Positions 47 through 24,485 are shown, counted from the stretch's first letter. The stretch is DNA of 40,838 nucleotides from Candidatus Tenebribacter mawsonii (GCA_030765665.1 JAVCCD010000339.1:1-40838); one strand, 5' to 3'. The notes: a model not told the origin generated them from the sequence alone. A program made the numbers and translations.

Positions 47-123
47 GCGCCCGTGGCTCAATTGGATAGAGCATCTGACTTCGGATCAGAGGGTTTGGGG
101 TTCGAGTCCCTACGGGCGTGCCA
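47..123 (+). tRNA. tRNA-Arg, anticodon TCG, 3' CCA encoded
   Basis: Cloverleaf folded by eye. Acceptor GCGCCCG/CGGGCGT (G1-U72 wobble). D arm GCTC-AATTGGATA-GAGC. Anticodon arm TCTGA-CTTCGGA-TCAGA, giving anticodon TCG. T arm TGGGG-TTCGAGT-CCCTA. Discriminator G followed by CCA. Confidence 0.9.
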
Positions 124-126
124 TTT
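94..126 (+). repeat. attL core: 33-bp direct repeat covering the 3' end of tRNA-Arg
   Basis: TTTGGGGTTCGAGTCCCTACGGGCGTGCCATTT is identical at 94..126 and 11679..11711. Confidence 0.85.
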
Positions 127-188
127 TACATGCATAACCCATTACTAACACGTATTATAACTAACTTAAATAAAATGTATATTTCTGA

Positions 189-200
189 AACGTTGTGAGA
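189..200 (+). repeat. AACGTTGTGAGA 12-mer, left-arm copy
   Basis: Exact 12-mer 63 bp inside attL. The same 12-mer occurs twice in tandem at the right arm. Confidence 0.5.
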
Positions 201-434
201 TTAGTTGTGGTTTTGACTGTTAATTCGTCAAATTTGTTGTAAATTCACCTCGAATAAAATTTGTTATTTTAAAATGAGTGTTTATGAAGTTTACAGTACT
301 AAAATAACAATATATTTTCGTTGTCTTCAAAAACTACGTTTGCCTGAATTGGAGATTCCTTAATCTCGCCACCACTATGAAAATATTTCGCATTCATAAA
401 TAAAAGTAATAAATCTGATAATTATCTTCATTGT

Positions 435-662
435 TTATTTAGGAATTTCATACTCTTCAGGTTTACCTTTTGTGATTCTTTTAATCTCATTGACGTAATT
501 TTTCCAATATATATCGTAATTATTCCTGACTTCTGTTTTTACTTCTCTAACTAAATCGTTACGGTATTTTTTTATCTCCGTATTACAATTTTTGCATTTG
601 TAACCAATTTGTACACCGTCTATTTGCCAACTTCCATGTATAACCATAGTTACCTGTATCAA
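435..662 (-). CDS. Hypothetical 75-aa ORF (doubtful)
   Basis: Open frame with a TAA stop and no recognisable family. Its 5' part overlaps, out of frame, the decayed T9SS C-terminal-domain remnant at 583..801. Confidence 0.2.
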
Positions 663-801
663 ACTCTTTAGACTCTATCAATTGTCCTCTCAAATTGAAT
701 ATTGTGACCACCCCTCTTTCGCCTTCTCTTATTTCAAAGCTTATTGTCGTAGCGGGATTGAAAGGGTTTGGATAGTTCTGTAGAGAAAAATTAGCACAAA
801 T

Positions 802-1755
802 TCAGATTCTGTTTTTTATTATATGTAATCCTGTAGATGTTACCAAATATACATAAGGATCTTCCACATGTACGTTTTGTTCTTGACCCTCTGTTTCCAA
901 CAAATCAACTATAAATGCATTGGTAGGATCACTTATATTAATCATACGAAGTCCCGCCAAACCATCAGCTACATAAGCATAGGAACCAGAAACGAAAACG
1001 CCATGTGCGTATTCTGCATAAACTGAATCTATTAAAACTGGGTAATTTGGATTACTTACATCTATAATCTTGAGACCACCTTGTAAATCACAGACGTATG
1101 CATACGAATTTGAAATAGATATATCTTCGGCATAATGTGTATCAACCGTACCAACTATTTGTGGATTTGCAGGATTACCAACATCTATAATTTTAAGACC
1201 AGAAAAACCATCGCCTATATAAGCATACGAATTATCAATTTGCACTCCAAATGCATCATCAGTTTCAACTGAACCTATAATTATTGGCTCTGCTTGGTTA
1301 CTAATATCTACAACTTTAAGTCCTTCAGATCTATCAGTTACATAAGCATAAGAACCAGAAACATAAACCTCGTAGGCATAATGTGTATCAACCGAACCAA
1401 CTATTTGTGGATTGTAGGGATTACTTATATCTATAACCACAAGTCCACTATATGTATCAGCTACATAGGCATAAGAGCCAAAAACATAGACATTTATGGC
1501 ATTTTCGGGTGTATCTACAAAACCAACAATTTCTGGATTAATGGGGTCACTTATGTCTATCACGTAGAGACCTTCTTCTTTACTCGCCACATAGGCATAA
1601 GAATCAGAAACATATACACCCCAAGAATTTCCAGGAAGCTCTACAGAAGCGATTAAAGAAAGTTTAGGATTAAATTCTTGTATGTCATTATCTGGCTCAG
1701 TAATACAACTAAACAATATCATACAAAACAGTATTAATAAAATAAATAGTTTCAT
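802..1755 (-). CDS. LVIVD-repeat beta-propeller lipoprotein, ending at a TGA that is followed in frame by a T9SS C-terminal-domain remnant
   Basis: Signal peptide with a lipobox (ILFSC). About 8 tandem units of SYAYVA..GL.VIDISNP.NP.IVG, the LVIVD-repeat type. RBS AAGGGGGA. Possibly a truncated or decaying gene. Confidence 0.7.
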   Translation of the reverse strand: MKLFILLILFCMILFSCITEPDNDIQEFNPKLSLIASVELPGNSWGVYVSDSYAYVASKEEGLYVIDISDPINPEIVGFVDTPENAINVYVFGSYAYVADTYSGLVVIDISNPYNPQIVGSVDTHYAYEVYVSGSYAYVTDRSEGLKVVDISNQAEPIIIGSVETDDAFGVQIDNSYAYIGDGFSGLKIIDVGNPANPQIVGTVDTHYAEDISISNSYAYVCDLQGGLKIIDVSNPNYPVLIDSVYAEYAHGVFVSGSYAYVADGLAGLRMINISDPTNAFIVDLLETEGQEQNVHVEDPYVYLVTSTGLHIIKNRI

Positions 1756-1854
1756 CTTTCCCCCTTATTTTTATCTTACAAATTTATATCATATAAAGTT
1801 CCCATATAATAGATTCTACTTACTGATCCTTTCAGTAGTGTTCAAACAACTTCT

Positions 1855-2301
1855 TCATTTTAAAAGCAAACATTTCTTAACAGCTTTAGTTTTACCGTTA
1901 ACATTTAATTTATAAAAGTACAAACCAGAACTCACAGATTTTCCAGATTCATCATCTCCATTCCAGATTACTGAATACTGACCTGCTGAAAACTGTCTGC
2001 TGACAAGTTTCTTCACCTTCTGACCTTTCAGATTATAAATTTCTAGCTCAGCGCTCTCAGCGTGCTCTGCGGTGATATTAAAAGAAATTGTCGTAGTTGG
2101 ATTGAAAGGATTTGGATAGTTAGAGATTGTGTAATGTTCTAATGACACTTGAACATCTTCTGCAGAAACGGGGTTATATATCATTTCAACATACTCAGGA
2201 TGATCTATAAATGGATTCCTGTTCTCTTGATAATCTTCATAAATGATATCATTTCTGTTTTCTCCGAATTCATCTACTGGGTCTTTTACATGCCACTGCA
2301 T
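1855..2301 (-). pseudogene. C-terminal fragment of an endonuclease I family nuclease, plus a T9SS C-terminal sorting domain
   Basis: WHVKDPVDEFGENRNDIIYEDYQENRNPFIDHPE matches the C-terminal motif of the endonuclease I family. It is followed by [14 protein letters not shown]...IYNLKGQKVK...SGLYFYKL...LLLK. It is out of frame with the upstream fragment. Confidence 0.7.
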
Positions 2302-2717
2302 TAGTGTAGAAAATACACCATGAACGGGTTCACTGAAATGTCACATGGTCGTAAATTATGAACATCAGTACCCGCACCTATTGCAGTACCAAAATCACCA
2401 TGAGATTTAGCCCATACATGCTCTCTGCTCCAACCTTGCCCATTATTATATTCCTGTGCTGCATCGACTGACCAACCAGTGTAAATGAGAATTACATTAT
2501 CAGGATTATTTGGATCTCGATCGGTTTCTTTGAGAATATCCCATGTATCAGTGCTTGTACTCGTATAGGGGAACTCAACATGATCATCGATGATATCATG
2601 CAAAGCGGATTTCAGATCTTCTCCGGAAAGACCTGCAGCTGAATAGTAGTAGCCTTCCGGGATGTCAGCATGAAGAGAGCTGAAGATAGCTAATACTATT
2701 ACAAATATAAATTTCAT
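2301..2717 (-). pseudogene. N-terminal fragment of an endonuclease I family nuclease
   Basis: Signal peptide, then YTGW...WSREHVWAKSHG...DVHNLRPCDISVN motifs. The reading frame breaks right after VN, and the central part of the family domain is missing. Confidence 0.7.
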
Positions 2718-2732
2718 AAGAAAGCTCCTTAA

Positions 2733-3230
2733 TTATTTCAATATAGATTCATAAACGCTAAGTGAGTCCCATGTCAGTATATTAATATCCTCTATTCTTG
2801 TGTCTACATTTTGAGGAGATCGTTTTTTCACAATCGCATCCAGTTGTGGTTTCCAAGCACTCGATAACTTAATCCGGTTATTAAAATCAAAATGGAACTG
2901 ATGGAGTACAAGCCCCATATATCCAAGCCAATCTGGGAATGTACAATTATTAGAAATAAACTCAATCGATGCATTAGATAATTCTGAGATGAATTTCTCT
3001 GTCATCTCATCTGACCAATCTTGGGACATTGCTCGTTTAAGCTTACTATGCTTTATATCCCAATCTAAACTTGATGGTTGGGGGTGATAACCTTTAGCTA
3101 TCATCGTGAAACCTGTCCTTATATCCATTGCGCCGCATGTTGTACAGTATAGAGTCCAACAGGAGTGTCTCTTTGATGCTAACACGCATAAAGCTTCAAA
3201 TGGATTAATGATGTCTTTTTTGTCGTTCAT
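2733..3230 (-). CDS. Hypothetical 165-aa protein with an H-x-C-x4-C-x2-C cluster
   Basis: ATG at 3230 preceded by AGGAGG (3235..3240). The longer start in the ORF track lacks an RBS. No family recognised. Confidence 0.6.
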   Translation of the reverse strand: MNDKKDIINPFEALCVLASKRHSCWTLYCTTCGAMDIRTGFTMIAKGYHPQPSSLDWDIKHSKLKRAMSQDWSDEMTEKFISELSNASIEFISNNCTFPDWLGYMGLVLHQFHFDFNNRIKLSSAWKPQLDAIVKKRSPQNVDTRIEDINILTWDSLSVYESILK

Positions 3231-3262
3231 AATACCTCCTGAACTTTCAGTAACCATAATCA

Positions 3263-3291
3263 AACATAAGATTATTGAGTATGTGTGTCAA
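3263..3291 (-). promoter_or_regulatory. Sigma70-like promoter candidate for the 165-aa gene
   Basis: On the minus strand: TTGACA (3286..3291), a 17-nt spacer, then TATGTT (3263..3268). Confidence 0.3.
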
Positions 3292-3442
3292 TATGTAAAT
3301 CTATTTGACAAACAAAATGCAATTTGGAAGATGTATTTAATCTTTTGTATATGATTTAGTTCTTTAAGAAGATAATGTCGTTTCTTAATGGTTTTGCCTT
3401 GAAAATCCCCAATTTTTTAGACCAACAGAATCTTGAGAAATG

Positions 3443-3532
3443 GTACCCGAATGGGTGCTCTTTCTTTTGTTTTGTTGGCAAGCATGGGGATGCTTCAAGG
3501 CTGGACATTTGATTGTAGCACCCTCTTTTTTT
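3443..3532 (+). promoter_or_regulatory. Attenuator/leader-like structured element ending in a terminator-like stem and T-run, 12 nt before the 333-aa ORF
   Basis: GGGTGC(T) at 3453..3459 can pair with GTACCC (3443..3448) or with AGCACCC (3517..3523). The latter is followed by TCTTTTTTT. An inner hairpin AAGCAT-GGGG-ATGCTT sits at 3480..3495. Confidence 0.3.
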
Positions 3533-3543
3533 AATAGGATATT

Positions 3544-4545
3544 ATGAAAATATTTGAGAGCTGGAAGTTTATAAGTGCTGATAGTATTAAGGAAGTCTTA
3601 GCGGGTATTATTTTATTCAATATCTTTATAATATTTGTTATCGGAGCTTTCATTCCTATATTATTTATTATACTCCCAGTTATGCTTGTCAAGGTGATCT
3701 TGATTATTGTTATTGTTTTACTTAATATACTACTTACTGGAGAAATTATCATAACACAAATACGAAAGGAATATCCTTTTTTAATTGATTTAAAATTATT
3801 AAGTTGTAATTTTAGAGATACTGCATATACAGATGTTGAAGTTCATGATGAAATCAATGAAATAATATATGCAAAAACAAAAGAAGTTTACGAAGTTTAT
3901 GAAGAAAAGAAAGTTTTAGAGATAGAGAAGAAATTTACAAATAATGAAATAATACAAATAGATACAAAACTTAACAAATGTTACAAATATAAGTATAATA
4001 ATAAGAGAGTGTTTATTGTGATAAAAGATGAATACTTGAATGAACGTAAACATCATGTTGATCTTGAAGGTGTGAAATTTGGTTCTAATGGATGGTCAAC
4101 AGTTGTTTATGTGGAAAAAGAATTAAAAAACCTACTTTTATTAGCAAATGCTAAAGTCATACTATATTTATTTAAAGACAACAGTAAATTTGATAGCATA
4201 TATAGAATAGTTAATCCAGAAAAATGTGGAAAAATTTATTTTCATGAGACATTTCAATCAGATTTTCTGAGTTTCGATAATGATCTTGATGATTACTTAG
4301 TTAAAGAAAAACGAAAGATAAAAGAAAGAAAGTCAATGGTGAAGAGATCTATTAGATGGCTATTGTTTGGGATTGGATTATATTTGTTTTATTTATTCAC
4401 AGAGTTTTTACCAATTGAGGAAATATATAATGCGCATTTAGGAAATTCTCTTATTGACAATTTTATTTGTCAATTTCTTGAATCCGTAACTGTATTTTCT
4501 TTTTTTGGTGTTGCTTTTATTTTATATAAGATATTAAAGTTGTAA
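3544..4545 (+). CDS. Hypothetical membrane protein, 333 aa, with N- and C-terminal TM segments around a soluble core
   Basis: Long ORF. Hydrophobic helices at residues ~20-70 and ~275-330. Extremely AT-rich. No family recognised. Confidence 0.6.
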   Translation: MKIFESWKFISADSIKEVLAGIILFNIFIIFVIGAFIPILFIILPVMLVKVILIIVIVLLNILLTGEIIITQIRKEYPFLIDLKLLSCNFRDTAYTDVEVHDEINEIIYAKTKEVYEVYEEKKVLEIEKKFTNNEIIQIDTKLNKCYKYKYNNKRVFIVIKDEYLNERKHHVDLEGVKFGSNGWSTVVYVEKELKNLLLLANAKVILYLFKDNSKFDSIYRIVNPEKCGKIYFHETFQSDFLSFDNDLDDYLVKEKRKIKERKSMVKRSIRWLLFGIGLYLFYLFTEFLPIEEIYNAHLGNSLIDNFICQFLESVTVFSFFGVAFILYKILKL

Positions 4546-4555
4546 GGAGATTAAT

Positions 4556-5047
4556 ATGAACAAACAGCAAAAGGTTATTATATTGTGTATGTTGTTAGCG
4601 ATTTTTCTATTATTAATATTTCCACCATTTAATAAAATAAGATATCGAGATGGAGAAAAAGAATTTATTGGGCACAGAATTATTTCTACTTCAAAGGTTT
4701 ATGATAGTGAAAGGAATTATAGAAGAGCCGAATTAGTTTATATTGATTCAATAAGACTTGTCATCTATGTATTTATTGTTATTATTATGGCTTTTGCTCT
4801 TACTATAATTACAAAAAATAAAAAACTAAACTTCAATAAAGGTTTTTTTAGAATGACCCTTATCCTATCACTAATTATTGGATTAATAGCATTATTAACG
4901 GAATTCGCTCCAGAAAATATCTTTCAAGTTCTGGTTATTATTTTAGGATTTGTTATATTATCTTTAATGATCTTCGTTTTTGTTAAATATATAGTTATAA
5001 AAATACTTAAATATATATTGGATGGTTTTACAAAAATAAAAAAGTAA
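4556..5047 (+). CDS. Hypothetical 4-TM membrane protein, 163 aa
   Basis: RBS AAGGAG upstream of the ATG. Starts 10 nt after the previous stop, which suggests an operon. Four hydrophobic helices. Confidence 0.6.
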   Translation: MNKQQKVIILCMLLAIFLLLIFPPFNKIRYRDGEKEFIGHRIISTSKVYDSERNYRRAELVYIDSIRLVIYVFIVIIMAFALTIITKNKKLNFNKGFFRMTLILSLIIGLIALLTEFAPENIFQVLVIILGFVILSLMIFVFVKYIVIKILKYILDGFTKIKK

Positions 5048-5052
5048 AGTTT

Positions 5053-5156
5053 GTGCATGGGTGGCGAAAATTAAAGACGCTGCCAGATTGGTCACCTCCG
5101 GTCTGGTTGGATAACCCGCAAGGAATCCGTGTGGGAGAATACCCCATCCCATGCAC
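5053..5156 (+). ncRNA. Candidate structured RNA of unknown class
   Basis: A GC-rich island in AT-rich DNA. The termini form a perfect 9-bp stem, GTGCATGGG/CCCATGCAC. Internal hairpins include CCAGATTGG-TCACCT-CCGGTCTGG (two G-U pairs valid only on the + strand) and a GCAA-capped hairpin at 5109..5128. The overlapping minus-strand ORFs look spurious. Confidence 0.35.
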
Positions 5157-5607
5157 CATAATTAGGAGATGAGATGAAAGATTCTGAATTAGAAAAAATT
5201 CGTAATAAACATAATCATTATGATCCTGATGAAGTACCGCATATAGATTACAGATTGAACCTGACCTCACGGCTCTCAAAATCGGTGCGAAAAAGCTTGG
5301 GGTTAATATATCACAGGCTCAAATTGTTGAAAATCCTAAAATAACAGATGAGATACATTTAGCAGGTCTCTTTGCTAAAGCGATCAACAGAAGGAGTTAT
5401 AGATGAAAGATTCAAAGATACCACCAAACGAGATGCCACATTTCTATCCGAGGAGAAGCAAAACCTCGCTGCTCTTAAGAAACGTGCGGATACTACTTGG
5501 AGAAAATATACACAAAGCTGTATTGGTTATTTCATAAAAGGTAAATAATATAGTAGCTAACATTCTGGGATATAAGGGATTGAAGTAGTTTTCTTCATAA
5601 TACTAAA

Positions 5608-5703
5608 ACTAAGAAATACTAAGAAATTTAAGAGAATTGAATATTACGGAAAACTACGAAAAACTATGTATTTTGAAATTTAGTAAACTTAGAAAAACTT
5701 AGA
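5608..5703. repeat. Cluster of short tandem repeats downstream of the primase gene
   Basis: ACTAAGAAAT x2 (5608..5627). GAAAACTAC/GAAAAACTAT (5649..5667). AAACTTAGA x2 (5685..5703), which is the inverse orientation of the CTAAG core. Confidence 0.4.
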
Positions 5704-5787
5704 TTTTTGACAATTCCTTAGCGATTTGTTCATCAGTTAGGCTTGTATCATGATTAATGATATCGGTCATACATATTCTCCTTCTAT

Positions 5788-6930
5788 TCATTCTTGGATT
5801 AATAAAAGAGCTTTTTGCTCTGCTCTTTCTTTCGATAAGCCACCTTCGAATTCCATTATAGCAGCACGTTCTTCAAAATCTTCTCTTTGCTCAGGATTTA
5901 ACTGATTAAGCTGTAATGATTGATTATTCTTTTTTCTATATTGAACCAATACTTCATTCATATCTTTACAAGGTTCTATATTGCATTCATCGAATACACA
6001 ATGCCAGTTAAGATGTGAGAGATTTTCGATTTCATTTTTAAATTCGAGTGTCTTATTGATACCCGCTTCATCATTATCAAAGGCAAAGACAATATTTTTG
6101 TCCGGATATTCTGTAATAAGTGAATTGTAATTTTTAATCCTTAGTGAATTAATTCCATTAATTGAAATAAATCCATCTCCAAAAAGTTCATAGTTTGAAA
6201 GTCCATCAATTATACTTTCAAAAATATAAATGTTTTTTTCATCATTGAATGCATAATAATATTTTTGTTTTATTCCATTAAGTTTATAACTTTTTATGTC
6301 CCCGATTAGATTTCTGCTTGAAAAATAAACAGGACTTCCGTCTTTGAAATGCGTAAATATGATTGCAGGTTGCCAAAATACAAAATAATCATTTCCTTTT
6401 TTTGAAGTTCCTATTAATCCTGCTTTCTTTAGAACATCATTATCAAATTGCTGTTTAAGTTTGCGGAATACTTTGTTTGGTTCATCTATGCTTTTAATTC
6501 TGAATTTATTTATAGTGCTATCCGACAATCCACGTTGCTGCATATACTTTTTGCCTTTATCTGTTAGGCTTATGATATCAAAAAAATATTGATAAACTGT
6601 CTGAATTTTCAATTTGGAATAACCAGCTTTATTATCTTTTATTTTGGTTTTCTTGTGTGTTTCTGTTTCGGTTATATGGTAAAGATCTTCTAAATAATTT
6701 ACTGCTTCAATAAAATTTTTATGTTGCATTCTCATTGTTAAATCAATTACTGATCCGCTTGCGCTGCATCCAAAACAATGGAAACTGTCAGTTTTCGGAT
6801 AAAATGTTAAACTTGCATTTGTATCTTCATGGAATGGGCAGATTGCTTTGTTATTCTTAACGGAAATACTAAAATGATTTGCAAGATCTATGATATTGAT
6901 CTCCTGTTTTATTTTATCCAGATGTTTCAT
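5788..6930 (-). CDS. DNA primase with a CHC2 zinc finger and a Toprim domain
   Basis: CPFHEDTNASLTFYPKTDSFHCFGCSASG is a CHC2 zinc finger. YIFESIIDGLS and FAFDNDEAG are Toprim acidic motifs. The C-terminal AAIMEFEGGLSKERAE motif is common in mobile-element primases. Confidence 0.85.
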   Translation of the reverse strand: MKHLDKIKQEINIIDLANHFSISVKNNKAICPFHEDTNASLTFYPKTDSFHCFGCSASGSVIDLTMRMQHKNFIEAVNYLEDLYHITETETHKKTKIKDNKAGYSKLKIQTVYQYFFDIISLTDKGKKYMQQRGLSDSTINKFRIKSIDEPNKVFRKLKQQFDNDVLKKAGLIGTSKKGNDYFVFWQPAIIFTHFKDGSPVYFSSRNLIGDIKSYKLNGIKQKYYYAFNDEKNIYIFESIIDGLSNYELFGDGFISINGINSLRIKNYNSLITEYPDKNIVFAFDNDEAGINKTLEFKNEIENLSHLNWHCVFDECNIEPCKDMNEVLVQYRKKNNQSLQLNQLNPEQREDFEERAAIMEFEGGLSKERAEQKALLLIQE

Positions 6931-6946
6931 TAATACCTCAAATAAT

Positions 6947-7124
6947 CAGTATCATTTCTGATTATCTGATACATGATTAGTGTCATTGAATAGTATCATA
7001 GATTGATACTGATTTAAATGATTACAAATGAATGACTTAGTAACCTTATGAATTGGATTAGTTGCACATTGTTGAAAATTGGTATCAGTGTCATCTCCTA
7101 TATAGGGCAGTGATACTGATACCA
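6947..7124. repeat. Iteron-like cluster of about 8 TGATAC/GTATCA hexamers between the ATPase and primase genes
   Basis: GTATCA at 6949, 6993 and 7082. TGATAC at 6967, 7004, 7111 and 7117. A 10-nt inverted repeat: TGGTATCAGT (7080..7089) and ACTGATACCA (7115..7124). Confidence 0.5.
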
Positions 7125-7132
7125 TTTCGATT

Positions 7133-8242
7133 TTATCCGAGTAAGCTAACATAAAATTTTTCCCTTCCGGATTGATCTTTTACTTCAACAATTTTGATGA
7201 AGTTATATTCTTCAGACATGCGCTTTATGTATCTTTTAGCAGTAGCTTCAGACATCCCGGTGAATAGTATAATCTTACTTACAGCATCTTTATGATTAAT
7301 AGGTTTATCTGAGAAAACCTCCTTTGCGATTTCCTTGAATATTGCGGGTTTGTCATTTTGTTCATCCTTCCTATCCTTTATACCTGCGTAGGTATGATAT
7401 TTCTTATCACTATCATATTCGAATTGCAATATTGGGACATCCATACTATTGGCATTACGTAGTAGGTATGGTTCACAATAGCTGATTCCATCTTCACTTT
7501 TCTTAATCTGTAATACCGATTCTGCTTTCCTTTGCAACTGACTACCTAAATGCCCACGTTCTTTGTTACTGTTTGGGTTTAAATGTAGAATTGCGATAAT
7601 TGGACAGTCATATTCAATTGCTAATGTCTCAAAGAAATGTACAATAGAATTTGCTTGTTCTTCTTTGTTTACAGATGATATATAATCTGCTATACTATCT
7701 ATCACTGCTATATGAATTCCATTCGAAGATTTTGCTACCTCAGTAAATAAATCTCTTGTCCATTCCTGCATGTCTTCTAATTCCATTCCCCTGATGTTGT
7801 AACTGTAAAAATACTCTGGAGACTTTTCAATCCGTGATCGTTTGATTATTGCATGGATCATATTCTTGAAATGGTCATGCTTTGCTTGTTCAGTATCAAT
7901 ATGAATCACTGCTTTTTTTTGTTTGTTCCCATCAATGTAAAGAGGTTCAAATCCATCGTAACCATCGTCATGTCCTCTTATTACTCCTGCAAGAATGACG
8001 CTGCAGAATGCACTTTTCCCAGCTTTACTGCTTCCGGATAACATAGTAAGATTCCCTGCAGTTGATATAATATTTCCATTAATGCTAATTATTGGATATG
8101 GTTCAGGAATATTTATTTCTGATGTAATTCTCAAATTGGCATACTTACTTAAAAAAGTTTCTTTTTTTTCAGTTGTTGTATGATCCTCGGTTTTCTTAAC
8201 TAAGCCTGGTTTCTCATCTATATGCCCGTCTATTGTATTCAT
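7133..8242 (-). CDS. RecA-like P-loop ATPase (AAA_25/RepA-type replicative ATPase) with a C-terminal winged-helix-like tail
   Basis: Walker A GSSKAGKS. Walker B-like IAVIDSI. ILHLNPNSNKERGHLGSQLQRKAESV resembles RepA/DnaB-C-type helicase loaders of mobile elements. Confidence 0.7.
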   Translation of the reverse strand: MNTIDGHIDEKPGLVKKTEDHTTTEKKETFLSKYANLRITSEINIPEPYPIISINGNIISTAGNLTMLSGSSKAGKSAFCSVILAGVIRGHDDGYDGFEPLYIDGNKQKKAVIHIDTEQAKHDHFKNMIHAIIKRSRIEKSPEYFYSYNIRGMELEDMQEWTRDLFTEVAKSSNGIHIAVIDSIADYISSVNKEEQANSIVHFFETLAIEYDCPIIAILHLNPNSNKERGHLGSQLQRKAESVLQIKKSEDGISYCEPYLLRNANSMDVPILQFEYDSDKKYHTYAGIKDRKDEQNDKPAIFKEIAKEVFSDKPINHKDAVSKIILFTGMSEATAKRYIKRMSEEYNFIKIVEVKDQSGREKFYVSLLG

Positions 8243-8480
8243 TTATCACTTCCTCTTCAATTTTTTCAATTAGTTCTTCATTCATTTCAATTGCTTTTTC
8301 ATAGTAATGACCACCACGATCAACCCAGTGCAATAGGGGTACATCAACTCTTAATCCATTATTCAATTGAATAATTCGCATTTGATTGATTATCATTCCG
8401 TAAATTTTAATTGATGCTGTAGCGATCAGATTGCCTTTGTTGATTACCTTCATTCCTATTATTTCAATTTCATCATTCAT
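8214..8480 (-). CDS. SpoVG-like small protein
   Basis: IATASIKIYGMIINQMRIIQLNNGLRVDVP resembles the SpoVG core (KAxASITxDxxFVVHDIRVIxGxNGLFVAMP). This is similarity by eye only. Confidence 0.45.
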   Translation of the reverse strand: MNDEIEIIGMKVINKGNLIATASIKIYGMIINQMRIIQLNNGLRVDVPLLHWVDRGGHYYEKAIEMNEELIEKIEEEVINEYNRRAYR

Positions 8481-8491
8481 TTGTTTTTCCT

Positions 8492-8842
8492 TTAATTTAT
8501 TATTGGTTTGAAGGGAATTATCAGGTGCCCTAATTTTCTTTCCCTGGATTTTAAGAATTTCCCTTTTTTGTGTATTCTCCTTTTAGGTGCTCCACATTGA
8601 ATTAAAACATCCAGATTTTCATTTCTAGTGTCAAATTGATATAAACCATCAGCTGTTGCCCATTCGTTGAAAATTATACCTTTTGAACGTAACTTAACAA
8701 GGGTTTTGTAACTCCAGCATGTACAACCTAATGTTGTTTTTGATTTCCTGTAGATTTCCATGAATTTTGTGATCAGAAATGTATCTCTGCATTTGTCCCG
8801 ATAGAGAAGATGCTTGTATTCTGAAGATATTAATTTTCTCAT
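8492..8842 (-). CDS. Hypothetical basic 116-aa protein
   Basis: ORF tightly packed within the element's operon. No family recognised. Confidence 0.5.
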   Translation of the reverse strand: MRKLISSEYKHLLYRDKCRDTFLITKFMEIYRKSKTTLGCTCWSYKTLVKLRSKGIIFNEWATADGLYQFDTRNENLDVLIQCGAPKRRIHKKGKFLKSRERKLGHLIIPFKPIIN

Positions 8843-8849
8843 AATATCC

Positions 8850-9107
8850 TCACTTTCCAGCTATGATGTTGCTAATTGCTTCGGATTCAATCTGTAGGGA
8901 ACTCTTAACAAGACTTGTATTATTGAGAATGAAATTGTCTAAATCTACTTTTTTGTAATATACCTTGCGACCTCTTCGACGGTGGAACGGAATTGTTCGG
9001 TAATAATTGTAACTATAAAGCGTTGCAGGTTTCAAGTTTAAGTATGCACAAGCTTCAGCAAGAGACATGAAAACGGATTCAATCTGATTTTGTTTTTTTT
9101 GTACCAT
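8850..9107 (-). CDS. Excisionase/AlpA-like helix-turn-helix DNA-binding protein
   Basis: MSLAEACAYLNLKPATLYSY..IPF...GRKVYYKKVDLDNFI fits the MerR-superfamily Xis (HTH_17) pattern. The start is placed at the ATG at 9107, 8 nt after AAGGAG. The track start at 9140 lacks an RBS. Confidence 0.7.
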   Translation of the reverse strand: MVQKKQNQIESVFMSLAEACAYLNLKPATLYSYNYYRTIPFHRRRGRKVYYKKVDLDNFILNNTSLVKSSLQIESEAISNIIAGK

Positions 9108-9216
9108 GAAAAAACTCCTTATTCTTATTAAGGTTTTCACCTTTCGAATAAGAAGTCCGACTTCAAGAGTCGTTTAAGAACTTAATAGGTCGTTTATAAT
9201 AAATAATATGAATTAA

Positions 9217-10407
9217 TTAAAACCAATCTAATTCACAGGAATATGATATTTTGCCATTTCTCCATTTAATATATGAGTTTATATGCTCATAGAATTCAGG
9301 GTATCCTCTTTTGCAATGTGACATAGCAGTTCTGCATGCTTTTGTAACACTATCAGAAATTCTCTTATCGTTTAAAGTAGTATTTGAACTTGATAGCCTA
9401 ATTTGTTTGATATTATTGTAAATTGTGTTAATTTCAGTTTCAATCTTTTCAATTTTCACTTCATAAGCTGTTGGATCAACTTCTATCGTATTTTTTAAAT
9501 AAATAAGTTCATCTTCAAGGCTTCGTTGATTTTTTCTTAAATCATTAAGTTCTGTTTTGAATGGTAAATCATCTAAAATCCGGGACTCTAAGTTATGTGC
9601 ATTGGCTAATTCCGAATAAAGAAATTTTGTATCAGGAGATTTTAAACATTTTGAAAAATAATAAATCCCAAGCAGATCTTGTAGTATTTTTCTTTTTCCA
9701 TTATAAACAACTTCCCATCCAGCACTAATTCTATTAATTGAGTATCTATGTATATTTGGATATTTTCTTTTTTCTAATTCTTTAAATTTTACTTCCAAAC
9801 CAGTTATGTCTACCGCTTGCCTGCAAATTGTATTATCCATGGTACTAATAGTTTTCGAAATAGAATTTATTTGATTATATTTTTCAATTACATATTTCAT
9901 GTACAATTCAAAATAACGTGCGTATCCGTATTCTTTTATCTCTTCATTTTCCATTAACAAGTTATCAATTAATGGCCAACATGCTGCTCCTTCGCAAAAA
10001 TAAAATAAAAATAAACCATATAAATTTAATGGGATGCTTAACATTTGCATAGTGTCAGCTAATGAATCTTCGAATAATTCTGATTTTATTGCATGAAGAA
10101 TCTTAAAAAAATGATTTTCAATAAAGTGAGTATATGCATGAACAAACATATTAGAAATCATTTCTAGCCTTTCAGGATCTGAAAACAGCTGTTTTCTGTT
10201 ATTGAATAAATCATTACTGATGTAATACGATTCAATTTCGTTTAAAATTCTATCCTTAACTTCGATAAAATCTTTTTCAATGTCGTTTGAATCAAAAATA
10301 TTCTCAATCATTATCATCGAGTAATCGGAGATATTTTTTTCGTTGGAACTAATTCTGTAAGTTAACCCATTTTTTAAAAGTTCAAGGTATTCATAAGTTT
10401 CATTCAT
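9217..10407 (-). CDS. Hypothetical 396-aa protein, translationally coupled to the integrase
   Basis: Its ATG (10405..10407) overlaps the integrase TGA (10404..10406) as ATGA. The C-terminal third is coiled-coil-like. No family recognised. Confidence 0.6.
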   Translation of the reverse strand: MNETYEYLELLKNGLTYRISSNEKNISDYSMIMIENIFDSNDIEKDFIEVKDRILNEIESYYISNDLFNNRKQLFSDPERLEMISNMFVHAYTHFIENHFFKILHAIKSELFEDSLADTMQMLSIPLNLYGLFLFYFCEGAACWPLIDNLLMENEEIKEYGYARYFELYMKYVIEKYNQINSISKTISTMDNTICRQAVDITGLEVKFKELEKRKYPNIHRYSINRISAGWEVVYNGKRKILQDLLGIYYFSKCLKSPDTKFLYSELANAHNLESRILDDLPFKTELNDLRKNQRSLEDELIYLKNTIEVDPTAYEVKIEKIETEINTIYNNIKQIRLSSSNTTLNDKRISDSVTKACRTAMSHCKRGYPEFYEHINSYIKWRNGKISYSCELDWF

Positions 10408-11516
10408 TTCGACTCCCAATTCAAATCAGGTAACTTATCAATCGCATCATCTCTTTTTTTATCGATTATCTTAGCATAGATCTGTGTGTGTTTGATGTCT
10501 TTATGCCCTAAAAGCTTGCTGACAGTGTAAAGGTCAATGTCATATGTTAAGCACAACGTCGCAAATGTATGCCGTGCACAATGGAATGTAATATGTTTAT
10601 CAATGCTATTTCGATGAACCCATCTTTTGATGTGCTTATTAATTGAATCTTCACCTGGAAGTCCGAAAATAAGATCAAATAGTTTATTTCCATTTCTCTG
10701 ATCTGATAATATATTCTGTGCAGAGCTTGATATCTTCATTCTTAATGTATCTGATGTTTTCTTCTGTAACACTTCAAGATTCTCTTCTTTAATGTTCTTC
10801 CATGTTAACGATCTTATATCTGAAATTCTTAATCCAGTGAAACAACTAAACAGGAAGGCATTTTTTATATCCTTATCAATTAATTTATCAGTAGAAATCT
10901 TTATTATCTCATCTTCAGTGAGAAACTCTCTTCTGGCATTCACTCCTGGGTTCAATACGAATAATGCAGGATTTTTTGATATATAGTTCTTCTTTAGCGC
11001 AATATTTAGCATAGCTTTGAAGTTTGAGAAATATGTACTGGTCGTATTTGGAGATACTACTGTTAGCAAGTATTCTCTATAGCTTTCGCATAATGGTAGT
11101 GTGATTTTCGAAAATTTCAAATAACCATCATTGAACTTAGTAAAATGTTTTAGGGCATTAGTCCAAACATTATAAGTATTTCCGGTTTTCTTGTTTTTGA
11201 CTTCTTCATAAAATTCAATTACATTAGAATCACATAATTTTTCTTTCTTTAAGGACTCGTTACCATGAAGCTTATACTGGAACTCATATTTAGATTGTTC
11301 TTCGCTTGCTTTCTGGATAATTTGTTTATCATGGGTAAGATTTGAGATTTTACCAGAAATCGTTAATCCCTTAAGATTAATTGTTTTCCGAATGTCTATT
11401 CTTTGAATCTCTAAATATAAGGAATAGTCATGCTTCTGTTTCCTGTATTTAATTTTGAATTTACTGTGATGATTATAAGTTCTTATTTCTTTTATCAATT
11501 TTTCATTCATTTTCAC
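10404..11516 (-). CDS. int: Tyrosine recombinase / phage-type integrase
   Basis: Catalytic signature: LRISD (Arg), HCARHTFAT (H-x-x-R), LLGHKDIKHTQIYAKI (His and Tyr). The N-terminal arm-binding and SAM-like domain layout resembles Bacteroidota-type integrases. Confidence 0.9.
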   Translation of the reverse strand: MKMNEKLIKEIRTYNHHSKFKIKYRKQKHDYSLYLEIQRIDIRKTINLKGLTISGKISNLTHDKQIIQKASEEQSKYEFQYKLHGNESLKKEKLCDSNVIEFYEEVKNKKTGNTYNVWTNALKHFTKFNDGYLKFSKITLPLCESYREYLLTVVSPNTTSTYFSNFKAMLNIALKKNYISKNPALFVLNPGVNARREFLTEDEIIKISTDKLIDKDIKNAFLFSCFTGLRISDIRSLTWKNIKEENLEVLQKKTSDTLRMKISSSAQNILSDQRNGNKLFDLIFGLPGEDSINKHIKRWVHRNSIDKHITFHCARHTFATLCLTYDIDLYTVSKLLGHKDIKHTQIYAKIIDKKRDDAIDKLPDLNWESK

Positions 11517-11529
11517 TACCTTTTAATAA

Positions 11530-11553
11530 AACGTTGTGAGAAACGTTGTGAGA
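11530..11553 (+). repeat. Two perfect tandem AACGTTGTGAGA 12-mers just upstream of the integrase start (candidate arm-type or operator sites)
   Basis: 11530..11541 and 11542..11553 are identical to 189..200. They lie 14-37 nt upstream of the integrase ATG at 11516 on the minus strand. Confidence 0.5.
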
Positions 11554-11678
11554 TTTCATGCAAATCATTCAAATCCATTACAACCTAATATTAGTTCACA
11601 TTCTCTTAGTTCACTCTATGCAAGCGTTATGTCTAACGCAATCCAAATAAATCAAAGGTAATCAAATTGTCAACTGAA

Positions 11679-11711
11679 TTTGGGGTTCGAGTCCCTACGG
11701 GCGTGCCATTT
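11679..11711 (+). repeat. attR core: second copy of the 33-bp tRNA-Arg 3' end, with no tRNA 5' half
   Basis: Identical to 94..126. The upstream sequence does not fold into the rest of a tRNA. The integrase gene lies ~160 bp inside this copy. Confidence 0.85.
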
Positions 11712-11983: not shown

Positions 11984-12748
11984 TTAATAGAGATTAAAAA
12001 AACTCAGATATAAACTAATTAACGTATTGCCTGCGAGAATGTAAAATATTGATCCCACAACGAGAAACGGTCCAAAAGGAAAGTGTTTTTGGCGATCATG
12101 TTTTAAAACTAATAGTGTTGCTAGAGCTATTAATGACGAAAAAAGTATTGTGAATAATGTTCCCCAAATTCCCAGAAAAGCACCAATTGCAGCAATAAGT
12201 TTAATGTCACCACCACCAAGGCTGTCTTTATCAGTAATTTTTTGGAAGAAATAAGCTGTGAATAAAAATAATAGAAAACCAGACAGAGCACCTATTCCAG
12301 CTGATATCCAGTTAACATCGGTATGTGGCAAGATTGAGAAGATGAATCCAATTATTATAAGTGGTAATGATAGTTTATTTGGAATTATGTAATGAAAAAA
12401 ATCAATAAAAAAGATGATCAAACCGAAAGAAATAAAAATTGCATATTTGAAAAAGACAATTGAGAATTGTGCTTCTAGGCTTATAAAAAGGAGAATCAGC
12501 AAAATAGGTGTTAATATTTCCACAAGAAAGTAATGAATATTGATCTTGGTGCCACAATATGCACATTTACCCTTGAGTAAAATATAACTTATTATTGGAA
12601 TGTTGTGATAAGGTTTAATTTTTGTTTTACATACTGGGCAACTTGAATCTGGGTATACAACCGATTTTTTTATGGGAATTCTGGAAATACAAACATTGAA
12701 GAAACTTCCAAAAACCGTTCCAAATATAAATATTATTAAATAGAACAT
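11984..12748 (-). CDS. pilD: Prepilin peptidase (A24 family)
   Basis: N-terminal CPVC...CAYC zinc motif, a polytopic membrane region and GGGDIKLIAAIGAFLG. Confidence 0.9.
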   Translation of the reverse strand: MFYLIIFIFGTVFGSFFNVCISRIPIKKSVVYPDSSCPVCKTKIKPYHNIPIISYILLKGKCAYCGTKINIHYFLVEILTPILLILLFISLEAQFSIVFFKYAIFISFGLIIFFIDFFHYIIPNKLSLPLIIIGFIFSILPHTDVNWISAGIGALSGFLLFLFTAYFFQKITDKDSLGGGDIKLIAAIGAFLGIWGTLFTILFSSLIALATLLVLKHDRQKHFPFGPFLVVGSIFYILAGNTLISLYLSFFNLY

Positions 12749-12777
12749 AATAAAAATGCCCGGATAAACCGGGCATT
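12749..12777 (-). terminator. Terminator-like hairpin between pilC and pilD; its U-tail runs into the pilD start codon
   Basis: A perfect 9-bp stem, AATGCCCGG-loop-CCGGGCATT (12755..12777). On the minus strand it is followed by UUUUUAUUAUG. Confidence 0.4.
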
Positions 12778-12784
12778 AATTAGT

Positions 12785-14038
12785 TTATTTCATTCCTGAA
12801 CTGATGGCCAGTCCCAGATTGAATATCGGCAGATATATGATTACGATAATGTAACCGACCAATGCTGCCATAATAATTATCATCATCGGCTCTATAAGTG
12901 AAGTGAGCCTTTCTATTACAGAGTCAACCAACTTCTGATGAAATTCTGCTGCTTTTTTGAGCAGACTATCCATTTCACCAGTCTCTTCACCAGTTGATAT
13001 AAGTTGAAGAAGAGTTGATGGGAACACTTTTGTTTTCTTAAATGCTCCTGCAACGGTATAGCCCTCTTTCACCAAATGTCTGGCCTGCTTACAAGCTCGT
13101 TCAATAATTGCATTTTGAACAACTTTTTCAACCAGCTCCATAGTATCCATAATGGGAACACCTGCGTACATAAGTATACTAAATGTTCGTGCAAATTTGC
13201 TCATGATAGAGTTTTCCATCAAATTTCCAATCACAGGCATTTTCAAAATGATGCTATCTATAACTAAATGTCCTCTTTCTGAGATATAGAATAAAAAGAA
13301 AGCCATTAAGAATGCTAACACACCTAAGCCAGTGAAGAATACATTCTCACGAACAATATTACTGATAGCAATAGCGGCAACTGTAGGTGCTGGAAGATCT
13401 GCATTGAAACTTTCATAAACACCAGCGAACATAGGTATTATATAATAGAACAAGCCCCAAACCACAAATGCCAGGAAGGCAAGAATGAATATTGGGTATG
13501 AAAGTGCAGACCATACTTTACGACGCGTATCTTCTATTTTCTCTAGATAGGTTGCAAGTTCATCAAGTACTGTATGGAGCGTACCAGAAACCTCACCTGC
13601 TTTTACCAATGCAATAAAAAGTGAATTAAATACACCCGGATGCAGTTCCATAGATTCCGATAAACTGTATCCCTTTTTAATGTCGTTTGATAACTTCAGT
13701 AGAACTTTCTTAAAACGCTTGTTCTTCTCTTCTCTAGCCAAATTAGTTAACGACTTCTCAATGGTTAGACCCGCCGAAAACATTGTTGCAAGCTGGCGTG
13801 TGAAGAATACAAGAATTTTTAAACTTATACCCGTTCTTATTTTATAGATAGTAAGCATTATTTTATCGAGCATTGATAGCTGTCCGCTGAACGCTCCTTC
13901 TTTTCCCGGCTTCACCGAGATAATAATGCTACCTTCTTTAGTTAACTTATCAACAGCTTCGTCCATAGAAGTAGCTTTTAAAGTTCCCTCTACACGAAGC
14001 CCTTTTACGTCTTTTATTATATATTGAAAAACTGCCAT
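12785..14038 (-). CDS. pilC: Type IV pilus platform protein (GspF/PilC family)
   Basis: Two T2SSF-type repeats with three TM segments. Position lies between pilB and pilD. Confidence 0.9.
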   Translation of the reverse strand: MAVFQYIIKDVKGLRVEGTLKATSMDEAVDKLTKEGSIIISVKPGKEGAFSGQLSMLDKIMLTIYKIRTGISLKILVFFTRQLATMFSAGLTIEKSLTNLAREEKNKRFKKVLLKLSNDIKKGYSLSESMELHPGVFNSLFIALVKAGEVSGTLHTVLDELATYLEKIEDTRRKVWSALSYPIFILAFLAFVVWGLFYYIIPMFAGVYESFNADLPAPTVAAIAISNIVRENVFFTGLGVLAFLMAFFLFYISERGHLVIDSIILKMPVIGNLMENSIMSKFARTFSILMYAGVPIMDTMELVEKVVQNAIIERACKQARHLVKEGYTVAGAFKKTKVFPSTLLQLISTGEETGEMDSLLKKAAEFHQKLVDSVIERLTSLIEPMMIIIMAALVGYIIVIIYLPIFNLGLAISSGMK

Positions 14039-14063
14039 ATTATATCCTTCTTAATTAGAGAAT

Positions 14064-15773: not shown

Positions 15774-15793
15774 TTATTTTCTCCTACTTATCA

Positions 15794-17266
15794 TTAATTT
15801 ATGTATCTTCTCAGTATGATAGTAACCTGATTTGTTGTATTCGTTCCAAGAATCTGTGCTGTAACAGTACCAGTAGTTGTTCCTGGTGGATCTATACCTG
15901 GAGCAGGGCATTCTACATAATAGTATTCAACTTCCTTACTAAGACTTCCATGCTCACCGCTTACAATAGTTGTAAGACCAGTATATGGGTCACCTGTATC
16001 TGGTGGATATGGTTCTAGTGGACTACCAAGTGATGTTGAAAAAACAACAACTTGATTGTCTATAGGATTATTCTGACCATCCAATACCGTAATTCTGATC
16101 TCTGTTGTTTTATATTGTGGATCTGGGGGAATTGCCCACCAGTCAATATGAAGTGGAACAGCTACAATATCTATAGAAGGGAATTGGATTGGAAGGACCA
16201 ACTCACCTTCAAACATATCACCAAGGCCTGTTTCAATTCTCACAAGAACTGTGTCATTTGTGTGAGATCCATTATAATTTAAATATGAATAAGCAACACC
16301 TGGTAAGGAATCTCCCATTGCATTTTGATTATTAACATAAGCTGCTGCAACTACAGATGCCCATTCTGGCTCTTCTGGAAGTGAGAAGAATACAGCAGTT
16401 CCAGAAGCAACTGGGTTACCTTCTATATCATTAAGCAGAGATGAAATTTGTACTCTCCACATACCACTACCCATATCTACACCGCTGCTATGACCACCAA
16501 TTCCAAATTCTACTGTATGAGTAAAACCGCTGGCTACAACGATATTTGATTTTGTTGCAAAGATATTTGCACCACTTAAAGTTTGAGTAGAAACACGACA
16601 GGTAACAATTCCTGAGTGCTCGCCACTGTTTATATTTACAGAAGCCTTTCCAGCAATCGATGTTGCTGTATCAATCGGACCAATATTGTTTATGTTCGTT
16701 CCATCAGGAGCATATAATAATTCAAACACAACATCTTTTGGTTGTGATATTAACTGACCTGAATTATCATAAAGACTTGCTACAAGTTCAAAAGTTTCTT
16801 GACCACCTGTTCCCTGAACACTAATCTCAACTTGTTCTGAAGTATCAAAACCTATTGAGCTTACATCTTGAGGTGGAACACCATCAATATAAATATCAAG
16901 TGTTTCTGAAATACTTCCTACTATTGCTTCGATTGTTGCACTACCAAACGCATTTCCATCATGGAACTTAACAGTAGCAATACCACTACTATCTGTAATA
17001 GCCTCTGCTGGAGTTAAGTAACCAATGTTAGTTCTAAATTTAACTGGTTGCTCAAAAACAGCAAAATTGTCACTATCTTTAACCATAACCTGAATAGTTG
17101 CAAAAGTCATGTCATCACCATCAGAATAAATTACTGATGTATTTGAAGTCATACTTGCAATTGTGTAATCTAAAGGATCTACTATTCTATTATCACAGGC
17201 AGTAAGTAAAAGACCTGTAACTATAATAGCAATCGAGAGTAATAAAATCAGTTTTGTATATTTCAT
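15794..17266 (-). CDS. Lipoprotein with bacterial Ig-like (Big_1-type) domains, coupled to the secretin gene
   Basis: Lipobox LLLTAC. Repeated segments such as ATIQVMVKDSDNF...TDSSGIATVKF...GSATIEA are Big-like. Its ATG overlaps the pilQ stop as TAATG. Confidence 0.6.
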   Translation of the reverse strand: MKYTKLILLLSIAIIVTGLLLTACDNRIVDPLDYTIASMTSNTSVIYSDGDDMTFATIQVMVKDSDNFAVFEQPVKFRTNIGYLTPAEAITDSSGIATVKFHDGNAFGSATIEAIVGSISETLDIYIDGVPPQDVSSIGFDTSEQVEISVQGTGGQETFELVASLYDNSGQLISQPKDVVFELLYAPDGTNINNIGPIDTATSIAGKASVNINSGEHSGIVTCRVSTQTLSGANIFATKSNIVVASGFTHTVEFGIGGHSSGVDMGSGMWRVQISSLLNDIEGNPVASGTAVFFSLPEEPEWASVVAAAYVNNQNAMGDSLPGVAYSYLNYNGSHTNDTVLVRIETGLGDMFEGELVLPIQFPSIDIVAVPLHIDWWAIPPDPQYKTTEIRITVLDGQNNPIDNQVVVFSTSLGSPLEPYPPDTGDPYTGLTTIVSGEHGSLSKEVEYYYVECPAPGIDPPGTTTGTVTAQILGTNTTNQVTIILRRYIN

Positions 17267-18672: not shown

Positions 18673-18687
18673 ACATTCTCCTTTATA

Positions 18688-19236: not shown

Positions 19237-19237
19237 A

Positions 19238-20391: not shown

Positions 20392-20395
20392 CCCT

Positions 20396-21466: not shown

Positions 21467-21510
21467 GTAACCTCACATTTTTAGTCATTTTTTTATCTAT
21501 CTATATTTTT

Positions 21511-23808: not shown

Positions 23809-23817
23809 AATATCTCC

Positions 23818-24483: not shown

Positions 24484-24485
24484 AA

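Follow-up and report, generated by a model that had tools for sequence, protein, structure and literature searches.

A probable hypervariable slot for membrane-protein genes, bounded by a conserved leader and a structured RNA, in a satellite-like element of Candidatus Tenebribacter mawsonii

The DNA analysed here, referred to as the window, is a stretch of 40,838 nt from Candidatus Tenebribacter mawsonii (GCA_030765665.1, JAVCCD010000339.1:1-40838), the left end of which is occupied by an 11.6-kb element integrated in a tRNA-Arg gene and resembling, in gene content, phage-inducible chromosomal islands (PICIs) and virion-encapsidated integrative mobile elements (VEIMEs). The interval of interest (2733..5156) probably represents, with an estimated probability of about 0.62, the boundary between a core gene of this element, coding for a cysteine-rich protein of 165 amino acids (aa), and a hypervariable accessory slot. 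In the window the slot holds a pair of genes encoding membrane proteins of 333 and 163 aa, and comparison with metagenome contigs, the source runs of which are labelled as marine and salt-lake metagenomes, revealed that this pair is one of at least seven exchangeable cargo sets situated behind the same conserved leader.

Exchangeable cargo sets behind the conserved leader

The slot was found in the following configurations. In the window (configuration i), the 333-aa and 163-aa genes are followed by a structured RNA and by a small open reading frame (ORF) of 56 aa. Contigs L026 and L027 (configuration ii) carry the same pair and RNA, then ORFs of 136 aa and 161 aa (hydrophobic), and only after them the 56-aa ORF. 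In L001-L005 (configuration iii), the RNA and a 57-aa ORF are preceded by a 90-aa transmembrane (TM) protein and by one of 168 aa that is homologous to the 163-aa protein (54% identity), while runs X2 and X3 (configuration iv) contain a first-gene allele that matches the window from 4256 on, together with a divergent allele of the 163-aa gene. The remaining occupants are a 512-aa ankyrin protein with C-terminal hydrophobic segments in L021 (configuration v), a 463-aa TPR protein with a signal-peptide-like N-terminus, followed by a small ORF and by ORFs of 50, 174 (Cys-rich) and 150 aa (hydrophobic) in L008-L010 (configuration vi), and a protein of approximately 206 aa with an N-terminal anchor in L012 (configuration vii). 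Judging by their sequence features, these cargoes are predominantly membrane or secreted proteins. A preliminary description of the interval had treated all of it as the cargo position of an integrated element; this holds for the membrane pair, given at least seven gene sets behind the leader, and fails for the 165-aa gene, which accompanies every slot variant whose contig extends that far.

A conserved companion of the slot is the gene of a small basic protein of 56 aa (5174..5344, + strand; MKD..DPxExP..), with homologues in L001 (42% identity), L003 (an in-frame variant), L008 and L026, and with no family match in Pfam, PADLOC or PHROGs. Several recombination scars are visible in this region. 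A frameshifted second copy of the small ORF, of L001 type, lies at 5403..5537 (+ strand), positions 5424..5624 of the window being 86% identical to L001, and in L021 a 3' remnant of the gene for the small terminase subunit (TerS) has become joined to a piece of the 163-aa gene, likewise from its 3' end. In L026, an extra cassette (2046..2943), encoding the soluble 136-aa and the hydrophobic 161-aa proteins, sits between the RNA and the small ORF alongside an identical 333-aa/163-aa pair, and the junction TAGGAGATGAGATGAAAGA, comprising a ribosome-binding site (RBS) and a start codon, occurs on both sides of it. Further to the right, the tandem-repeat search by TRF detected iteron-like 10-nt repeats (ACTAAGAAAT, TACGAAAAAC and AAACTTAGAA) at 5608..5703, and similar AAACTTAGAAAAACTAAGAG repeats are present in L001 and L008; they are a candidate replication origin and the candidate right limit of the slot.

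The leader at the left boundary

The left boundary of the slot is formed by a conserved leader (3406..3532, + strand) that, according to alignment and folding, ends in an intrinsic-terminator-like helix and a U run. The approximately 300 nt from the start of the 165-aa gene to position 3531 are 96-98% identical in ten further loci, or in eleven with L023, a second copy of L001; the leader itself shows 97% identity, versus 86-88% nucleotide identity for the adjoining 165-aa gene. Five aligned cargo variants do not differ at any position of 3453..3531, and their homology breaks off where the T-run ends. The start codon of the 333-aa gene is located 12 nt past this T-run in the window and roughly 25-60 nt past it in the other variants. 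Two leader folds of equal energy (-27.9 and -28.1 kcal/mol) compete for the GGGUGCU strand: the first consists of the hairpin GGUACCC/GGGUGCU, extended by AGAAA/UCUUU, and the second of a long-range helix, GGGUGCU/AGCACCC, followed by UCUUUUUUU. The sole substitution seen in a leader stem (A to G, in L012) preserves the base pair of the first hairpin.

Upstream of the leader, the divergent intergenic region (3231..3405), presumed to contain the promoters, is 96-98% identical in L021, L008-L012, L004 and L002, and the only sigma-70-like sites detected there belong to the minus-strand gene. The leader also contains small ORFs, which were rejected as genes, since variants differ by a 1-nt indel that changes the reading frame of either strand. 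Some contigs of runs X1-X3, with depths like that of the host (136 and 212), seemingly fuse position 3440 to 4960; the shorter side of this joint matches over 22 nt only, and it is probably a short chance similarity.

A structured RNA at the right-hand side of the pair

Behind the 163-aa gene, folding and a covariance model delineated a structured RNA of approximately 105 nt (5053..5158, + strand), composed of a closing helix and four hairpins. It folds at -45.1 kcal/mol; z is -4.1 for the + strand, compared with -1.9 for the minus strand. A metagenome pattern scan, look-ups and covariance-model matches yielded five distinct versions of it, namely those of the window, L021, L026, L001 and L019/L022 (L019 4221..4323, L022 351..453). 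In the alignment of these versions, which comprises five distinct sequences only and was fitted to the model, 96% of the cells are paired and 7 pairs are compensatory (double changes), a result reached by none of 500 shuffles and contrasting with 30-43% in slid controls. Hairpin 2 is represented by three unrelated sequences, each of which forms a hairpin, and the GNRA-loop hairpin (GGAU..CCGNAAGG..AUCC) is invariant. Both features by which a structured RNA can be recognised, compensatory substitutions and strand-specific stability, are thus present at 5053..5158. The flanks of the pair are GC-richer than the genes, as had been pointed out previously (0.44 for 3443..3532 and 0.55 for 5053..5156, versus 0.25 for the genes).

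Read coverage and contig structure set this RNA apart from its surroundings. The depth of its core rises to approximately 890, versus 31-52 in the flanks, and the points from which contigs diverge are precisely 5055 and 5158. At least four contexts lie beyond these points, and in every one of them an RBS and a start codon follow within approximately 15-20 nt 3' of the RNA. It is absent from configurations v and vi, which indicates that it travels with particular cassettes or with phage. Among the families of Rfam 15, only tRNA reached the gathering score, and relaxing the threshold to E values of up to 10 over 3200..5800 gave only chance snoRNA and miRNA matches, located outside the leader and the RNA. 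The metagenome pattern scan returned nine loci, five of them chance matches within coding sequence on unrelated contigs (one labelled as human gut metagenome), and the pattern missed the L026 variant, which has TCGGAT. Among the viral contigs of IMG/VR, neither the RNA pattern nor the leader pattern, nor the profiles of the SpoVG-like protein and of TerS described below, found a match. Antisense pairing similar to that of the P4 CI RNA was considered and rejected, the energy of the RNA-leader duplex being no better than that of shuffled controls. Taken together, the RNA is best read as a putative 5'-leader or processed regulatory RNA common to phage and putative satellites.

The membrane-protein pair

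The first gene of the cassette (3544..4545, + strand) encodes the 333-aa protein, in which a charged core of approximately 198 aa separates two hydrophobic blocks (aa 12-74 and 273-333); the predicted layout is an N-terminal TM hairpin, the charged core and a C-terminal TM pair. The second gene (4556..5047, + strand) encodes the 163-aa protein with four hydrophobic segments. The preliminary description of these ORFs proved accurate: together with the 165-aa one, they were found in place, with the Cys cluster HxCx4Cx2C in the latter, the TM segments of the 333-aa protein and the four hydrophobic segments of the 163-aa protein, and the 10-nt gap between the two membrane-protein genes contains an RBS of its own (GGAG). 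With GC contents of 0.252 and 0.238, respectively, the pair also represents the most AT-rich coding DNA as described, no other ORF of 120 aa or more in the window (overall GC content, 0.34) being as AT-rich. At this base composition, a run of 333 codons would be free of stops with a probability of approximately 1e-15. In addition, both frames are open in a divergent metagenome allele, in which most substitutions are conservative, a -1 and a +1 indel compensate for each other and a 3-nt deletion is in frame. An improbably long frame and an allele with both frames open indicate that these membrane ORFs are real genes, and spurious ORFs were therefore ruled out as an explanation.

The 333-aa protein retrieved only itself among 5.8e9 proteins and likewise in a full phmmer search over 1.84e9 representatives, and it had no match among PDB sequences. 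A single-sequence AlphaFold2 (AF2) model of it was unusable (predicted local distance difference test score, pLDDT, 51.5; predicted TM-score, pTM, 0.24). Identical 333-aa genes are carried by contigs L026-L028, and the only part that the allele from runs X2 and X3 has in common with the window, from 4256 on, corresponds to the C-terminal TM module. The 163-aa protein has a single homologue, P0009 (54% identity), found at the same position in L001, where its partner is the 90-aa TM protein, unrelated to the 333-aa one. Searches with the two proteins of the pair against PADLOC 2.0 (E values of up to 1; its models include RexAB, Kiwa and Abi families), Pfam and PHROGs gave nothing beyond sub-threshold noise, and neither Pfam nor PHROGs contained a holin or other phage membrane-protein profile matching them.

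The 165-aa cysteine-rich protein and the left arm

The gene of the 165-aa protein (2733..3230, - strand) starts with ATG behind a GGAGG RBS and heads a leftward operon. The protein is, in prediction, all-alpha, and has six homologues, four at 75-95% and two at 36-37% identity. Residues C15, C24, C29, C32 and C96, as well as the strings FEALCVLAS and FPxWLGY, are invariant across the family. The string HSCWTLYCTTC, noted before as an HxCx4Cx2C cluster, therefore stands as a motif as far as its cysteines are concerned, its histidine varying among the homologues. As the protein is helical and putatively cytoplasmic, its five invariant cysteines suggest that it binds a metal. A co-directional gene begins 16 nt 3' of the 165-aa gene in the window, in L008-L011 and in L012/L013, and in the window this is the gene of an Endonuclease_1 protein; in L012 and L013, the gene of a 302-aa protein, the N-terminus of which reads by inspection as a lipoprotein signal, intervenes. 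By its sequence context, the 165-aa protein is a conserved core protein of a leftward operon with a secreted endonuclease I and not cargo, and the earlier grouping of all three ORFs in one module has been abandoned.

No family match was obtained for the 165-aa protein in Pfam, PADLOC or PHROGs, and its profile found nothing significant among PDB sequences. Checks against defence-system models and by predicted fold had been suggested at the outset: PADLOC returned no match for the 165-, 333- and 163-aa proteins at E values of up to 1, and Foldseek, run for the AF2 model of the 165-aa protein (all-alpha, pLDDT 69.5), found no PDB fold below E = 3. Its assignment to the ADDT amino acid:DNA transferases (PF18724) was rejected, with 14.4 bits versus a cut-off of 26.2 and a match limited to two of the seven family members, at E values of 0.03 or worse. 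Among the GTDB species-representative genomes, only three distant matches were detected, all in unrelated contexts. A 74%-identical homologue, P0005, is encoded on a 13.4-kb JGI contig together with a PIF1/AAA_30 helicase, a TPR protein and a GmrSD_N (DUF262) gene, which looks like a defence-island or mobile-element context. The distant homologue P0007 (36-37%; L006 4670..5248) lies amid genes for a VIT-VWA protein, a sortase and other proteins without assigned function.

The left arm of the element encodes, according to Pfam, an LVIVD beta-propeller protein and an endonuclease I with sorting domains of the type IX secretion system (T9SS). The endonuclease I gene (1855..2717, - strand) is split into two ORFs: the N-terminal one covers profile positions 2-108 and ends just past DVHNLRPCDISVN, and the C-terminal one covers positions 201-235, followed by FlgD_ig and T9SS sorting domains. 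With approximately 90 profile positions missing, the window copy is probably a pseudogene. In L029, a 265-aa ORF occupies the corresponding place and is a candidate counterpart by position only. The LVIVD gene (663..1755, - strand) stops at an in-frame TGA, the frame running straight on into a T9SS sorting-domain motif; this TGA could be a nonsense mutation or a site of read-through. Contigs fusing 777 to 2138 or 2143 lose the LVIVD gene between two 35-nt repeats, which are 91% identical and encode the sorting-domain motif.

Integration site and backbone of the element

The element extends over 127..11678 (11.6 kb) and is inserted in the 3' end of the tRNA-Arg(TCG) gene (47..123, + strand; detected by ARAGORN, Rfam tRNA score of 64 bits), its integration target. 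A repeat search identified attL (94..126) as a 33-nt perfect direct repeat equal to the 3' end of the tRNA gene, and attR (11679..11711) as its second copy, with 100% identity, adjoining the gene of a tyrosine integrase (10404..11516, - strand; Pfam Phage_integrase and Phage_int_SAM_5). An adjacency of the interval to the att site is not borne out, the LVIVD and endonuclease genes lying between the two. Two marine metagenome runs, X2 and X3, contain the empty site: contigs fuse position 93 to 11679 over the common 33 nt at depths of 136 and 202, respectively, versus approximately 0-30 over most of the element interior. These empty-site contigs and the low interior depth indicate that the element is mobile and is carried by a minority of the host population. 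Repeats derived from the tRNA, an integrase and, in the population, unoccupied sites thus identify it as an element integrated at a tRNA gene.

The right half of the element encodes HTH_17 (AlpA/excisionase-like) and SpoVG-like proteins, an AAA_25 ATPase and a DnaG-type primase (Zn_ribbon_DnaG with Toprim), all assigned by Pfam. The related element on L001 (7.5 kb) has the same backbone, except that DnaB and a small terminase replace the primase and the AAA_25 ATPase, and it terminates in a similar tRNA-Arg-derived att sequence. Identity between the window and L001 is 75% for the integrase and 91% for the SpoVG-like protein. The latter, of 88 aa (window 8214..8480, - strand; L001 4106..4387, - strand), is the best-conserved protein of the backbone and an unusual core gene product for a satellite-like element. 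The TerS gene, intact in L001 (Terminase_2), has left in the window just a remnant of 51 nt (5700..5750, - strand), 86% identical to L001 1974..2024; TerS is a candidate packaging-hijack gene.

To the right of the element, the flanking host chromosome (11984..40838) carries a cluster for a type IV pilus/type II secretion system (PilB/GspE, PilC/GspF, secretin-like). A 1228-aa protein encoded there has a weak, sub-threshold match to the T9SS C-terminal domain of PorU-like type, and the 254-aa ORF at 11984..12748 resembles, by inspection only, a prepilin peptidase.

Satellite-like gene content and a candidate helper phage

An integrase, an AlpA/excisionase-type regulator and a replication module are present in the element, and no structural genes were detected among its ORFs scanned with Pfam. 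By these genes, the element is probably a phage parasite, PICI- or VEIME-like in gene content. Marine satellites have been reported to contain AlpA regulators, excisionases, primases/helicases and homologues of TerS whose nearest counterparts belong to co-occurring phages (PMC9618062). The present elements resemble PICIs and VEIMEs (PMC10085698; PMC9618062) in their size of 7.5-11.6 kb and location at a tRNA gene, in their tyrosine integrase, HTH_17 protein and replication of the primase/helicase type, in the TerS homologue of L001, akin to that of a co-occurring phage-like contig, and in having no capsid, tail or lysis genes. They differ in that a SpoVG-like protein is the best-conserved backbone gene product, that a recognised master repressor, of Stl type or otherwise, was not found, and that the window copy has only a TerS remnant, its satellite nature being predicted from gene content. 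The comparison with P4-like satellites made previously does not hold for the element itself, since none of the P4 hallmarks Psu, Sid, Delta and alpha primase-helicase was found in Pfam scans of its proteins; unlike in P4, the primase is of DnaG type and accompanied by a separate AAA_25 ATPase.

The phage-like contig in question, L019 (13.8 kb), encodes TerS, an O-like replication initiator, exonucleases and a 590-aa protein without family match. Its TerS is 45% identical to that of L001. In L019 the RNA is placed between leftward replication/TerS genes and a rightward gene block, near the head of this block. In run X1, an RNA-bearing contig of L019 type reaches a depth of approximately 347, versus approximately 30-115 for parts of the satellites. 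L019 is a candidate helper phage.

Proposed model and alternative explanations

In the proposed model, the cargo would be transcribed by read-through of the leader terminator, so that the leader would be a gate, opening conditionally through antitermination or attenuation. The proteins of the cargo would act at the cell envelope, the first one as a variable membrane-anchored sensor or adaptor and the four-TM protein as a membrane effector. As for what this cargo does, interference with phage is preferred, tentatively, because slots of P4 and P2 hold defence genes (PMC9122126; PMC13586616), and because the N-terminal/core part of the first gene is exchanged, with the TM module and the partner persisting. 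Compared with the preliminary description, the positional argument for a putative defence function has become stronger.

Several observations weigh against this interpretation of the interval. The window copy has lost TerS, and dependence on a helper phage and packaging are conjectural. The read-through of the terminator, the position of a promoter and the ends of the RNA are predictions from sequence, and no sigma-70-like promoter of the + strand was found upstream of the leader. The folding energy of the leader is unexceptional (z = -1.4); accordingly, of the two structured RNAs said earlier to bracket the pair, the right-hand one is well founded (z = -4.1, 7 compensatory pairs), and the left-hand one gives way to a segment distinguished by conservation and a terminator. 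The leader also shows too little variation for covariation to be seen, so that a DNA site, and not an RNA, is conceivable. The relatives all derive from a small number of related metagenomes, marine and salt-lake, and the near-identity of the leader could partly reflect recent recombination. Finally, the alternative cargoes match only generic Ank/TPR models, apart from one marginal hit, in Pfam, PADLOC and PHROGs, and the slot occupants, like the left-arm LVIVD and endonuclease genes, fit remodelling of the envelope or secretome equally well.

Among more specific readings, the pair may be a dedicated abortive-infection or superinfection-exclusion system, in which the 333-aa protein would sense infection, the 163-aa protein would depolarise or block the membrane, and the leader terminator would keep both silent until infection; this is possible, if far from established. 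The hypervariable slot of a satellite-like element is the kind of place where defence genes of P4/P2 are found (PMC9122126), the alleles differ in the N-terminal/core part of the first protein while keeping the TM module and partner, the two-gene layout with a four-TM second protein recalls RexAB, in layout only, and the GmrSD_N gene and PIF1-type helicase accompany the 74%-identical homologue of the 165-aa neighbour. Against this stand the failure of both proteins to match PADLOC, Pfam or PHROGs, the lack of a recognised defence system among the alternative cargoes, and the singular position of the 333-aa protein, which left no homologues among 5.8e9 proteins to be checked for co-occurrence with defence islands. 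Somewhat less likely, and on balance doubtful, is a slot of envelope or secretome "moron" genes that alter the host surface or its interactions, in the manner of lysogenic conversion and not of immunity. Ankyrin-TM, signal-peptide TPR and N-anchored occupants would suit it, as would the LVIVD and endonuclease I proteins of the left arm with their T9SS sorting domains and the lipoprotein-like N-terminus of the 302-aa protein in L012; yet the LVIVD and endonuclease genes are disrupted in the window copy, no link connects the 333-aa and 163-aa proteins with any envelope pathway, and turnover this extreme is seen more typically in conflict genes. A lysis or release module, that is, a holin with an antiholin or regulator, either the satellite's own or derived from the helper, is very unlikely: small multi-TM proteins with basic C-termini (163 aa; 90 and 168 aa in L001) and the proximity of an RNA common to a phage-like contig recall such a module, but no holin family was matched in Pfam or PHROGs, no endolysin is encoded nearby, L019 has only TerS and the RNA in common with the elements and not the pair genes, and the Ank/TPR alternatives are unsuited to a role in lysis.

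The conserved flanks could instead act as DNA, namely as packaging sites (pac/cos), operators or recombination sites for cassette exchange, with the structures as by-products. Homology boundaries are indeed sharp (3532, 5055 and 5158), mosaic scars and duplicated junctions such as that around the extra L026 cassette are present, and the leader is nearly without variation. The helices of the RNA, however, survive 7 double changes and three unrelated hairpin-2 sequences, the RNA contains G-U pairs, folds well on one strand only and has the invariant GNRA-loop hairpin, and the leader ends in a canonical helix and U run oriented towards the cargo. Flanks acting as DNA are an unlikely explanation, for which the leader is a better candidate than the right-hand RNA. 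Equally improbable, at the other extreme, is a new RNA-based control circuit linking satellite and helper phage. In such a circuit, the leader may be a bistable terminator that silences membrane-active cargo, the 105-nt five-helix RNA may belong to a new class of regulatory or processed RNAs common to phage and satellite, infection may open the gate via this RNA or the satellite may tap the early-gene control of the phage, and the slot may be a reservoir of wholly new membrane-acting anti-phage effectors.

Relation to known systems and significance

Lambda RexA/RexB and Kiwa are two-gene membrane defences. The pair of the window resembles them as a mobile two-gene operon encoding a protein of approximately 300 aa and then a four-TM protein of approximately 150 aa, and differs from them in matching no PADLOC model and in the anchoring of the first protein, predicted at both ends. 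Lambda PR'-tR' is controlled by Q antitermination, and P4 immunity by the CI RNA acts through premature termination. With these systems the slot has in common a short conserved leader, a terminator-like helix directly before the genes that it would gate and a structured RNA in what would be the same transcription unit; unlike in lambda, no antiterminator or Q-like protein was identified here, and unlike in P4, no C4/CI RNA family was matched in Rfam (E values of up to 10, 3200..5800).

Hotspots of variable anti-phage cargo are known in P2 phages and P4 satellites (PMC9122126; PMC13586616), and the slot resembles them in being a fixed site between conserved flanks at which unrelated gene sets swap among similar elements. 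The differences are that its occupants are not recognised defence systems and that its flanks are non-coding (a terminator leader and a structured RNA) plus a small ORF, instead of core genes. A satellite hotspot is thus of a known kind; what is new in this one is the lineage, the non-coding boundaries, the proposed terminator gate, the RNA and the membrane cargo without known family.

Satellite hotspots are a source of new anti-phage systems and have been mapped mainly in enterobacterial P4/P2 and in PICIs, whereas the slot described here comes from an uncultured marine/salt-lake lineage and is flanked by non-coding elements. The leader and the RNA provide two sequence probes with which further cargo may be harvested from metagenomes. 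They are also testable candidate regulatory RNAs, the leader as a putative terminator gate before the cargo, and the RNA as a structure absent from Rfam and common to phage and putative satellites. If the cargo is defensive, it would add new membrane effectors to those known; if it is not, satellite slots would also trade envelope genes.

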